Source: an uncultured Chlamydiales bacterium (GTDB taxonomy: Bacteria > Chlamydiota > Chlamydiia > Chlamydiales > JAAKFR01). From it: a stretch of DNA of 64,000 nt. The stretch lies in assembly GCA_963748195.1 (NCBI GenBank), contig CAVVHU010000001.1, forward strand, positions 52,698-116,697, written 5' to 3'. The notes beneath the pieces are model-generated. The model was not told the origin of the DNA. It ran no database searches and was given only the letters and a program-made list of their open reading frames with translations. Every line of letters begins with the position of its first letter. Positions within the stretch are counted from its first letter, which is position 1. A program made the position numbers and the translations under genes. Below, in pieces: positions 6,816 through 8,645 of the stretch.

Positions 6816-8645
6816 TTAGGCATAAACAAATGCCCCTCCTACGACACCTATTGCAGGCACGAGCCAGGAGATCGTATTACTTTCAGCAGAAGAGGATACG
6901 ACAACGCCCCCTGTATTAGAAGCTGACTGTGATATTGTTGTACTTGAAGAGCTTATAGTTGTTCCAGCAAAAGTTGTAGGGCTCGCTGTACTAGAAGATA
7001 ACCGTGATGTTGTTGTAGTCGAAGAACTTATAGTTGTTCCAGACAAGGTCGTAGTGCTCACTGAACTAGAAGCTAACTGTGATGTTGTTGTACTTGAAGA
7101 ACTCATAGTTGTTCCAGACAAGGTCGTAGTGCTCACTGTTGTGCCTACAGATCCACTGCTTGTGGACGTTCCTTTGGCTATGAGCCCTGTTGTTAGAGGA
7201 AAGGCAGCAGTGCTACTTGAAGGTACAGCATTCGGATTGAATATTTGCCCAAAGACTCCAGAATTGTTTCCATCATGACCGCTGGCGTCCCGCCAAGCGA
7301 TCACAAAATCGCCATTGCTTAAAGCGGATGCCGAAGGTTGATACTGCATCCCGGGCGTGTATGTATTGACTTGAAATTCGCTGCCGACTTTACCTCCCGT
7401 CGCATTGAATATTTGACTAAAGACTCCATAACTGTTTCCATCTTCGCCACTTCCATCATACCAAGCAATAACAAAATTGCCATTGCTTAAAGTGGACACT
7501 GAAGGGCCTCCCTGCATTCCTGTCGTGTATGTATTGACTTGAAATTCACTGCCGACTTTACCTCCCGTCGCATTGAATATTTGTGCGAAGACTCCATAAC
7601 TGTTTCCATCTTCGCCACTTTCATCCTCCCAACCGATCACAAAATGGCCATTTCTTAAAGAGGAGGCTGAAGGGTACATCTGACCTCCAAGAGTGTGTGT
7701 ATTGACAAGAAATTGATTGCCGATTTTACCTCCCGTCGCATTGAATACTTGCGCAAAGATTCCATAACTGTTTCCGTCTAGACCGCCGTCGTCTATCCAA
7801 GCGATCACAAAATCGCCATTGCTTAAAGAGGATACAGAAGGAGATACTTGGCTCCCTATCGTGTATGTATTGACTTGAAATTCACTACCTGCTTTCGCTC
7901 CCGTTGCACTGAATCTTTGACCAAAGACTCCATAGCCGAATCCATCTTCACCATAGGTGTCTGTCCAAGCGACTACAAAATCTCCATTGATCAAAGAGGA
8001 GACGGAAGGGCCTCCCTGTCCTCCAATTGTAAATGTATTGACTTGAAATTCACCCCCGACTTTAGCTCCCGTTGCATTGAATATTTGCGCAAAGACTCCA
8101 GCGCCATTTCCATCCAGGCCGTTATCGTCCTCCCAAGCAATCACAAAACCTCCGTTGCTTAAACTGGACACCGACGGGTTTGCCTGAATCCCTGTCGTAT
8201 ATGTATTGACTAGAAATTCACCACTGACTTTAGCTCCCGTTGCATTGAATATTTGTCCAAAGACTCCATAACTGCTTCCATCTTCGCCGCTATCGTCCAC
8301 CCAAGCAACCACAAAACCGCCATTGCTTAAAGAGGAGGCTGAAGGATTAAATTGATTTCCAATCGTGTATGTATTGACCTGGAATTCTCCCCCAACCTTC
8401 TGTTGTGCAAGTGCTCGTGGAAAACACGCGCTTAAGCCCGCAAATAATGGAAACGGATGTTTTGTGGCTAGGGAACCTGCTATCCCACTCATGAGGGCAG
8501 GGATACAAGAGTTATGCATGACATTATGCCAAACGCGACCAATTTTCTCATCTTTAGGAGAACTTATTTCAAATTTTTGTGAACAGAGAAGTGGAATGGG
8601 AGTTGAAAAAGCGACAGCTCCTTCATAAAATTGTGCGGCAGACAT
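6816..8645 (-). CDS. paralog A of repeat-ectodomain membrane protein family: ~85-aa conserved N-terminus, ~8 x 57-aa repeats, Ser/Thr-rich stalk, C-terminal TM, no cytoplasmic domain
   Basis: Tandem repeats GEFQVNTYTxGxQxxPSVSSLSNGxFVxAWxDDxGxDGxxxGVFGQIFNATGxKVG. Ser/Thr-rich low-complexity stalk, then WLVPAIGVVGGAFVYA and the stop. Conserved N-terminus shared with the two downstream paralogs. Confidence 0.75.
   Translation of the reverse strand: MSAAQFYEGAVAFSTPIPLLCSQKFEISSPKDEKIGRVWHNVMHNSCIPALMSGIAGSLATKHPFPLFAGLSACFPRALAQQKVGGEFQVNTYTIGNQFNPSASSLSNGGFVVAWVDDSGEDGSSYGVFGQIFNATGAKVSGEFLVNTYTTGIQANPSVSSLSNGGFVIAWEDDNGLDGNGAGVFAQIFNATGAKVGGEFQVNTFTIGGQGGPSVSSLINGDFVVAWTDTYGEDGFGYGVFGQRFSATGAKAGSEFQVNTYTIGSQVSPSVSSLSNGDFVIAWIDDGGLDGNSYGIFAQVFNATGGKIGNQFLVNTHTLGGQMYPSASSLRNGHFVIGWEDESGEDGNSYGVFAQIFNATGGKVGSEFQVNTYTTGMQGGPSVSTLSNGNFVIAWYDGSGEDGNSYGVFSQIFNATGGKVGSEFQVNTYTPGMQYQPSASALSNGDFVIAWRDASGHDGNNSGVFGQIFNPNAVPSSSTAAFPLTTGLIAKGTSTSSGSVGTTVSTTTLSGTTMSSSSTTTSQLASSSVSTTTLSGTTISSSTTTTSRLSSSTASPTTFAGTTISSSSTTISQSASNTGGVVVSSSAESNTISWLVPAIGVVGGAFVYA
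7100..8400. repeat. in-frame ~171-bp tandem repeats encoding the 57-aa blades of paralog A (approximate bounds)
   Basis: Visible periodicity in DNA and protein. Confidence 0.5.

Follow-up and report, generated by a model that had tools for sequence, protein, structure and literature searches.

Predicted seven-bladed propellers from a large uncurated repeat family, one of them joined to a Hanks-type kinase, in a chlamydia-like bacterium

We analysed a 64,000-nt stretch of DNA from an uncultured Chlamydiales bacterium (assembly GCA_963748195.1, contig CAVVHU010000001.1, positions 52,698 to 116,697), hereafter the window, in which three genes encode proteins with a 56-residue tandem repeat. The genes, A (6816-8645, 609 residues), B (9100-11181, 693 residues) and C (11667-14576, 969 residues), are arranged in tandem and co-oriented on the minus strand, and each carries seven copies of the repeat. 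Overall, the system would pair a propeller sensor with a Hanks-type Ser/Thr kinase; its repeats belong to a very large family that has not been curated, and their predicted fold matches that of CylK. We consider it reasonably probable that the three products are exported proteins anchored in the inner membrane, in which the propeller is a ligand-binding platform that, in C, is coupled to a cytoplasmic kinase. A sequence-only reading had described the repeat in A as an unannotated propeller-like module. Paralogs B and C, the kinase fusion in C, a kinase remnant behind A and the match to the CylK fold go beyond that reading.

The repeat and its consensus, FQVNTYTxGxQ..PSVSSLSNGxFVVAW..DGxxxGVFGQIFNATG, were confirmed in A. 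The period, first given as 57 residues, is 56 residues (168 nt) according to both Tandem Repeats Finder (TRF) and parsing of the translation. TRF placed the array of A at 7232-8387 (6.9 copies of 168 nt, score 1099), and parsing yielded seven repeats spaced exactly 56 residues apart (residues 87-478), which extends the array to 7212-8387. This portion of the range originally proposed, 6990-8400, stands; the portion from 6990 to 7211 is a Ser/Thr-rich stalk with a 25-residue repeat of its own. The arrays of B (9780-10931, score 1442) and C (13162-14326) likewise have a period of 168 nt and 6.9 copies according to TRF. In C, parsing gave six repeats of 56 residues and one of 59. The propellers of A, B and C are 68-72% identical in pairwise comparisons, with 68.5% identity between B and A.

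The three proteins share one order of parts: a leader of ~80 residues, seven repeats, a Ser/Thr-rich stalk and a hydrophobic helix. The leader of A, at 8406-8645, is conserved and contains two short hydrophobic stretches. The propeller regions, as defined by TRF and parsing, occupy 7212-8405 in A (the seven repeats plus an N-terminal strand, KVGGEFQV), 9757-10950 in B (seven 56-residue repeats) and 13143-14345 in C. The stalk of A (6873-7211) is 58% Ser and Thr, its 25-residue repeats being detected by TRF as 3.1 copies of 75 nt at 6911-7139. That of B (9481-9756) is 55% Ser and Thr, and that of C is short (13020-13142, within a segment spanning 12945-13142). The stalk is followed by a transmembrane (TM) helix in B (ISWLGPVVGAAGGVTCLAIGGFLLY, 9406-9480, Kyte-Doolittle 1.85) and in C (IFWLWPLIGAVSGVTCLAATGFALL, 12945-13019, Kyte-Doolittle 1.96), and by a C-terminal hydrophobic segment in A (ISWLVPAIGVVGGAFVYA, 6819-6872, Kyte-Doolittle mean 1.65 for residues 591-609). 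From the helix onwards the proteins differ: A ends within it, B continues into a repeat tail and C into the kinase. All of these features lie on the minus strand. Plus-strand open reading frames (ORFs) that overlie the arrays (7848-8162, 8365-8628, 9425-9892 and others) were rejected as mechanical by-products of the repeat, and a promoter and terminator scan of 6500-15000 revealed no excess of sites over shuffled sequence.

To predict the fold, we used AlphaFold2 to model residues 80-480 of A with 29 aligned homologs; a second model covered residues 1-480. The first model had a mean predicted local distance difference test score (pLDDT) of 86.3 and a predicted TM-score (pTM) of 0.90, and contained four strands per repeat, corresponding to KVGxEFQV, QxxPSVSS, FVVAWxD and GVFGQIF. 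The 56-residue repeats of each protein are thereby confidently predicted to fold jointly into one seven-bladed β-propeller, which bears out both the four strand-like blocks and the propeller-like module anticipated from the letters. Each blade comprises ~56 residues; a long loop separates its second strand from its third, and a loop of 8 residues leads across to the following blade. The strand KVGGEFQV directly follows the leader, whereas repeat seven has no such strand; this pattern suggests ring closure in 'velcro' fashion, the leading strand supplying the outer strand missing from repeat seven, as judged from strand order and standard propeller topology.

According to Foldseek, the closest structures to this model are those of CylK (7fh6, 7fh7 and 7fh8), with E-values of about 1e-13 and TM-scores of 0.74-0.76. 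The C-terminal propeller of CylK and BrtB (PDB 7RON, 7FH6) likewise has seven blades of ~56 residues and a long inner-strand loop in each blade. The model suggests that the repeats form the same structural subtype as CylK's C-terminal domain, a match made by structure only: the structural alignments had 13-14% identity, and PDB sequence searches with protein A, a 29-sequence profile, a single-blade profile of 62 repeats and an RTX-flanked homolog returned neither CylK nor any other propeller. Because HMMER gives no sequence link, homology of the repeat propeller with CylK is plausible but unproven. Integrin α FG-GAP propellers and the seven-bladed bacterial lectins PLL, CV39L and BP39L had structural scores no better than those of generic WD40 propellers, and the 56-residue repeat gave no match to the FG-GAP model of Pfam.

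The distribution of variable residues is consistent with a binding surface. In the chlamydial clade, the variable repeat positions are 9, 13, 14 and 30-40, while scaffold positions (such as F2, L20, N22, G37, Q45 and F47) have entropies of 0-0.3 bit; E1, N5, Q12 and D36 are nearly invariant and are candidate counterparts of the Ca2+ ligands that bridge the blades of CylK. A Nei-Gojobori-type ratio of nonsynonymous to synonymous substitutions (dN/dS) was 0.62 for the variable loops and 0.19 for the scaffold. The variable positions are predicted to sit in two loops that form the propeller's top face, and these two loops would form the ligand-binding surface.

The resemblance to CylK raises a different reading, in which the propeller is itself catalytic, performing alkylating or other small-molecule chemistry, and is not a binding module. 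CylK and BrtB are cyanobacterial alkylating enzymes that use alkyl halides, with catalytic residues Arg105, Tyr473 and Asp440. In its favour, CylK is by far the best structural match, and bacterial propeller enzymes of similar size (Vgb lyase, GH/PL members and sialidases) appear lower in the structural match lists. However, in CylK and BrtB an N-terminal Ca2+-binding β-roll and the propeller are both needed for catalysis (PMC8916777). The chlamydial proteins have no β-roll, RTX or other domain N-terminal of the propeller, and therefore no CylK-type active site; they are also membrane-anchored, whereas CylK is soluble. Moreover, HMMER detected no sequence similarity to CylK, the seven near-identical blades lack the blade-specific conserved polar cluster of propeller enzymes, and the variable residues are exactly those of the top-face loops. 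We therefore regard a CylK-like enzyme as extremely improbable. As to whether the repeat maps to a known family with an assigned function, what it matches is the fold of a solved structure, that of CylK, whose function needs a domain that is absent here.

The repeat itself is widespread in bacteria. When 1.84 billion cluster representatives were scanned in full with phmmer, there were 32,904 matches at E ≤ 1e-3, 24,289 at E ≤ 1e-10 and 12,291 at E ≤ 1e-30, and a word-indexed search recovered at least 7,919. HMMER E-values reached 0, and the repeat signal is far beyond chance. The homologs are up to 7,923 residues long with up to 20 matched stretches, and the giant ones are 35-50% identical over whole seven-repeat units. 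According to a repeat hidden Markov model (HMM), copy number is quantised: of the 120 best word-indexed homologs, 25 had 7 copies and 62 had 14. The structural unit is thus a set of seven repeats. All domains that accompany the repeat are extracellular, comprising RTX (PF00353), HCBP_related, dockerin, cadherin-like, Big and SLH domains, the tail of the type IX secretion system (T9SS), carboxypeptidase-regulatory-like domains and flagellin termini. Taxa with the repeat include Rhodobacterales, Nitrospiraceae, Ignavibacteria, Gemmatimonadota, Myxococcota, Rickettsiales, Chloroflexia and Planctomycetaceae. The occurrence of similar repeats in very large secreted RTX-type proteins, as stated in the sequence-only reading, was borne out by homologs that include carriers of PF00353 and are named from Planctomycetaceae and Alphaproteobacteria; many family members, like CylK, are fused to RTX-type Ca2+-binding β-rolls. 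These giant, adhesin-like secreted proteins are true sequence homologs of the same repeat, but carry 14 or many more copies together with RTX, dockerin, T9SS-tail or SLH regions, whereas the chlamydial members have a single propeller. In one homolog, P0090, a seven-repeat propeller lies between flagellin-like N- and C-terminal regions; from this arrangement, it would serve as the variable domain that a flagellin exposes.

That the repeat has no curated family name also held in the HMM searches that had been proposed. Scans of A, B, C and six homologs against Pfam-A and NCBIfam returned no model for the repeat, and none of the curated propeller families (WD40, FG-GAP, NHL, Kelch, PQQ, PD40 and LVIVD) scored above its gathering threshold. 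The only propeller-type Pfam match was PD40 in B, at 17.8 bits and under the 20.9 cutoff, and NCBIfam gave none. 'Unannotated' is right for the copies of Pfam and NCBIfam searched. As a caveat, a model from a newer Pfam release, PF26862, is listed on five of the 120 homologs. Literature searches with motif strings (VNTYT and similar) returned nothing relevant, and no description of chlamydial propeller-kinase proteins was found.

Protein C contains a Hanks-type Ser/Thr kinase domain (11922-12710, residues 623-885; PF00069, E = 2.4e-35), which lies on the opposite side of the TM helix from the propeller. Sequence inspection and alignment to PKC identified the motifs GEGNFGK, VKKVK, HLDIKLSN, DFG and SPE. 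Relatives of this kinase are few (36 matches); most are 37-53% identical to C, and among those with names the closest carry the label 'Chlamydiae bacterium'. Among them, P0015 has a propeller of the same 56-residue repeat as A, B and C. By contrast, P0132 has FG-GAP repeats and P0145, from a 'Chlamydiae bacterium' metagenome-assembled genome (MAG), has seven matched LVIVD stretches, in each case followed by a Ser/Thr-rich stalk, a TM helix and the kinase. P0132 and P0145 share with C the kinase subfamily, the stalk, a GG(V/I)xCL-type TM helix and the domain order, but differ in propeller family, such that the 56-residue repeat is one of at least three interchangeable modules. The strongest argument that, in this lineage, the repeat is a receptor ectodomain is that related kinases swap propeller type at a fixed position. 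These sequences suggest a modular sensor-kinase family in environmental chlamydiae. Across P0132, P0145, P0141 and P0143, the kinase subfamily of C was seen fused to FG-GAP or LVIVD propellers and, apparently, also to NB-ARC or NACHT domains.

Propeller receptor kinases of other bacteria provide a precedent. PknD of Mycobacterium tuberculosis has a six-bladed NHL propeller as its sensor. A survey of bacterial kinases included WD40-, PQQ- and NHL-kinase fusions (PMC1262709). These proteins likewise combine a Hanks-type kinase, one TM helix and an extracytoplasmic or interaction propeller. C differs from them in its order, which is reversed (leader, propeller, stalk, TM helix, kinase), and in having seven blades of an uncurated family, a Ser/Thr-rich stalk and a eukaryote-like kinase. 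By analogy with the propeller receptor kinases, ligand binding outside is presumed to control the kinase inside.

In the mechanism we propose, the proteins would be exported through Sec by the long conserved leader, which ends in A-x-A before the first propeller strand, and would be tethered to the chlamydial inner membrane by the Ser/Thr-rich stalk and one TM helix. C would be a type-I receptor Ser/Thr kinase, with the ectodomain first and the kinase last, in which the propeller serves as the sensor and the kinase is cytoplasmic. A, whose kinase was lost by truncation, and B, with its repeat tail, would be kinase-less relatives, possibly acting as co-receptors, decoys or adhesin-like proteins.

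The truncation of A is recorded in the DNA. Its stop codon falls inside the segment that, by sequence comparison, forms a complete TM helix in the other two proteins. Directly downstream of this stop, before yggS (6003-6620), a decayed kinase remnant (GSGNFGKLRFARNFKAKEFVSLKK, then an in-frame stop and K) occupies 6672-6749 on the same strand. According to blastx, the remnant is 54% identical over 26 residues to residues 625-650 of C (E = 1.8e-5), covers the glycine-rich loop to the VAIK-type lysine and contains an in-frame stop. Based on this remnant, sequence comparison identifies A as a truncated paralog of the receptor kinase C. The kinase-less tail of B (9103-9405) carries about five 12-residue repeats, EAKYGDVA(D/N)ID, at 9119-9301 (TRF period 36 nt, 4.1 copies, 9119-9265). 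Motifs resembling KYGDV are also present C-terminally in related chlamydial kinases, such as P0128, and fit the pattern of the eukaryotic YxxΦ sorting signal. The 5′ ends of B and C have a history of their own: the leaders are 96% identical and the upstream DNA (11182-11666 and 14577-14864) 93-95%, whereas the propellers are only 72% identical. This difference points to recent gene conversion or duplication limited to the 5′ ends.

The leader bears on where the propeller would be located. It is conserved in A, B, C and five other chlamydial homologs, and in every case ends in ALA followed by Q(K/Q)K right before the first propeller strand (PRALA followed by QQK in A). We read it as a long signal peptide that would be cleaved at the A-x-A site. 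In the AlphaFold2 model of residues 1-480, residues 1-34 had pLDDT below 50, residues 30-72 formed low-confidence helices and residues 76-79 again fell below 50. The possibility that the leader caps the propeller as a folded unit, by analogy with CylK's N-terminal domain, was ruled out by this model, in which it is disordered or weakly helical.

An alternative reading is that the proteins are host-directed effectors, mimicking eukaryotic receptors in a host membrane, be it that of the inclusion or a different one; the propeller would be luminal, and the kinase or tail would be cytosolic and act on host signalling or trafficking. The kinase of C is compatible with such a role: its best PDB sequence matches were the eukaryotic kinases PKC, CIPK and MARK (about 1e-17), and also CDPK, there was no bacterial kinase among the best 60, and it weakly matched the model for the Legionella effector kinase LegK1. 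The order of parts, from ectodomain through mucin-like stalk and TM helix to kinase, also resembles that of a eukaryotic receptor kinase. The first 34 residues are conserved despite their predicted disorder, and a disordered conserved N-terminus is compatible with a type III secretion signal. Further support comes from the YxxΦ-like motifs in the tail of B and at the C-terminus of P0128, and from the enrichment of N-x-T sequons in the chlamydial clade, described below. Finally, the two hydrophobic lobes of the leader, 14 and 16 residues long and separated by TKHP, faintly resemble the bilobed hydrophobic domain of Inc proteins. The latter, however, comprises two full membrane spans, about 40-60 residues. 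In 19-residue Kyte-Doolittle windows, the leader does not reach 1.4 in A or B, and reaches 1.61 in C. Short, and in A and B weakly hydrophobic, the lobes are therefore too weak for two Inc-type spans. In addition, the A-x-A site that immediately precedes the propeller is suited to signal peptidase, A-C have no adjacent genes for secretion systems or chaperones, and in other phyla the family of this propeller is typically a bacterial, extracellular one. On this balance, we consider an effector role unlikely.

Several observations nonetheless weigh against inner-membrane receptors that sense through the propeller. At ~80 residues and with two short hydrophobic lobes, the leader is atypical for a Sec signal; the TM helix predicted by hydropathy in C lies between propeller and kinase, and the leader, with its A-x-A site, is the only sign that the propeller would be exported. 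The kinase, putatively active, is closest to eukaryotic PDB kinases and has HLD in place of HRD. An ectodomain-first order is unusual for bacterial Hanks-type kinases, whose architectures were found in 2005 to be almost entirely 'Kinase + X' (PMC1262709). The eukaryote-like kinase and the ectodomain-first order are as compatible with a host-directed role as with a bacterial one. As for ligand binding, the dN/dS-type ratio of the variable loops is below 1, indicating relaxed constraint and not supporting diversifying selection on the top face, and the assignment of the variable positions to that face depends on strand order and standard propeller topology.

The N-x-T tripeptide of the repeat, at positions 48-50, had been described as strictly conserved, a description that did not hold. 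The tripeptides of A are NAT (five), SAT and NPN; those of B are NAL (two), NPT (two), NVS, NAT and NES; and those of C are NAT (six) and KAT. A valid sequon, N-x-S/T with x other than P, occurs in 14 of the 21 repeats of the window. Across eight chlamydial proteins it is present in 34 of 56 repeats (61%), as compared with 62 of 1,383 (4.5%) in other homologs, whose consensus at this turn is (D/N/S)-(A/S)-x-G. In the AlphaFold2 model, the motif falls at the tight turn that joins strands three and four. Within the clade, entropy at the N-x-T positions was 1.07-1.32 bit, as against 0-0.3 bit at the scaffold, and the dN/dS-type ratio of the turn was 0.38, twice that of the scaffold; the motif is thus less constrained than its surroundings.

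These data bear on the proposal that the module is N-glycosylated, the N-A-T of each blade being a used sequon, possibly with a fucose-containing glycan made via fcl. The enrichment of the sequon in the window and the clade relative to other homologs favours this proposal, as does its position in a hairpin turn, a site expected to be exposed; the Ser/Thr-rich stalks, for their part, could carry O-glycans. The fcl gene reported earlier at 57193-58179 was confirmed on the minus strand by a match to the GDP-L-fucose synthase model NF047922 (E = 5.2e-135). By contrast, non-sequon spellings such as SAT, KAT, NAL, NPT and NPN also occur, and the motif varies more than the scaffold. Because the repeats are recent copies of one another, the shared NAT reflects inheritance, not independent conservation. 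PglB-type enzymes need D/E-x-N-x-S/T. The context here is Q-I-F-N-A-T, with Ile, not D/E, at −2 in nearly all repeats. Among the ~40 ORFs scanned in the window, there was no glycosyltransferase, oligosaccharyltransferase (OST) or N-glycosyltransferase (NGT)-like gene. The fcl match, at 449.8 bits, is under the curated cutoff of 500, and the gene is ~43-49 kb from A, B and C. The ORF adjoining it (56503-57192) had no family match, and the gmd partner of fcl was not identified. Glycosylation at the sequon is, in our judgement, quite improbable. The family as a whole has D, N or S at this position, as expected for an Asx or ST turn, and the homologs indicate that all that is needed is D/N/S and then G three residues later. 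The simplest reading is that recent repeat copies inherited the N-A-T spelling, which was homogenised among them, and the N-x-T is most likely a structural Asx-type turn, as the sequence-only reading had allowed.

A bolder combination of these alternatives is that the proteins are host-membrane mimics, eukaryote-style type-I receptor kinases that are glycosylated in a host-derived membrane, either of the inclusion or ER-associated, and signal to the host cytosol, and that the 56-residue family is the source of the 'unprecedented' propeller of CylK. We give this combination only a slim chance of being correct.

The remainder of the window supports its origin in a chlamydia-like genome, as had been proposed. 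The nearest named relatives of its LigA are from Chlamydiales MAGs (75-76% identity), Chlamydiota MAGs (about 70%), Waddliaceae, Parachlamydia (60%) and Protochlamydia (59%). A Pkn1-like gene, with an N-terminal kinase and a C-terminal FGE-sulfatase domain, adjoins ligA (44392-46806 and 42411-44423, both on the minus strand), which we take to resemble the pkn1-dnlJ arrangement of Chlamydia trachomatis. Within the Pkn1-like gene, an 84-nt tandem repeat at 45376-45704 (3.9 copies, 92% matches) would encode 28-residue repeats between its two domains. Envelope-related genes at 22556-26579 (plus strand), 32844-35567 (plus strand) and 15467-16492 (minus strand) encode TamA/TamB-like proteins, MlaE/MlaF/MCE-type lipid transport components and a FloA flotillin-like protein; none of these neighbours has an evident functional link with the propeller genes. 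The propeller cluster is followed directly downstream by two minus-strand ORFs, 2465-4216 (583 residues) and 4460-6055 (531 residues). Neither has a match in NCBIfam, and the former also has none in Pfam; they may be lineage-specific proteins.

The wider meaning of these results is twofold. The repeat family has more than 30,000 cluster representatives, in giant secreted proteins from many phyla, and a curated model would annotate much sequence now termed 'hypothetical'. In the chlamydiae, to our knowledge, no such propeller-kinase system has been found in the pathogenic Chlamydia studied so far. Ectodomain-first, receptor-like Ser/Thr kinases with interchangeable propellers of this repeat, FG-GAP or LVIVD type would represent a sensing or host-interaction system.

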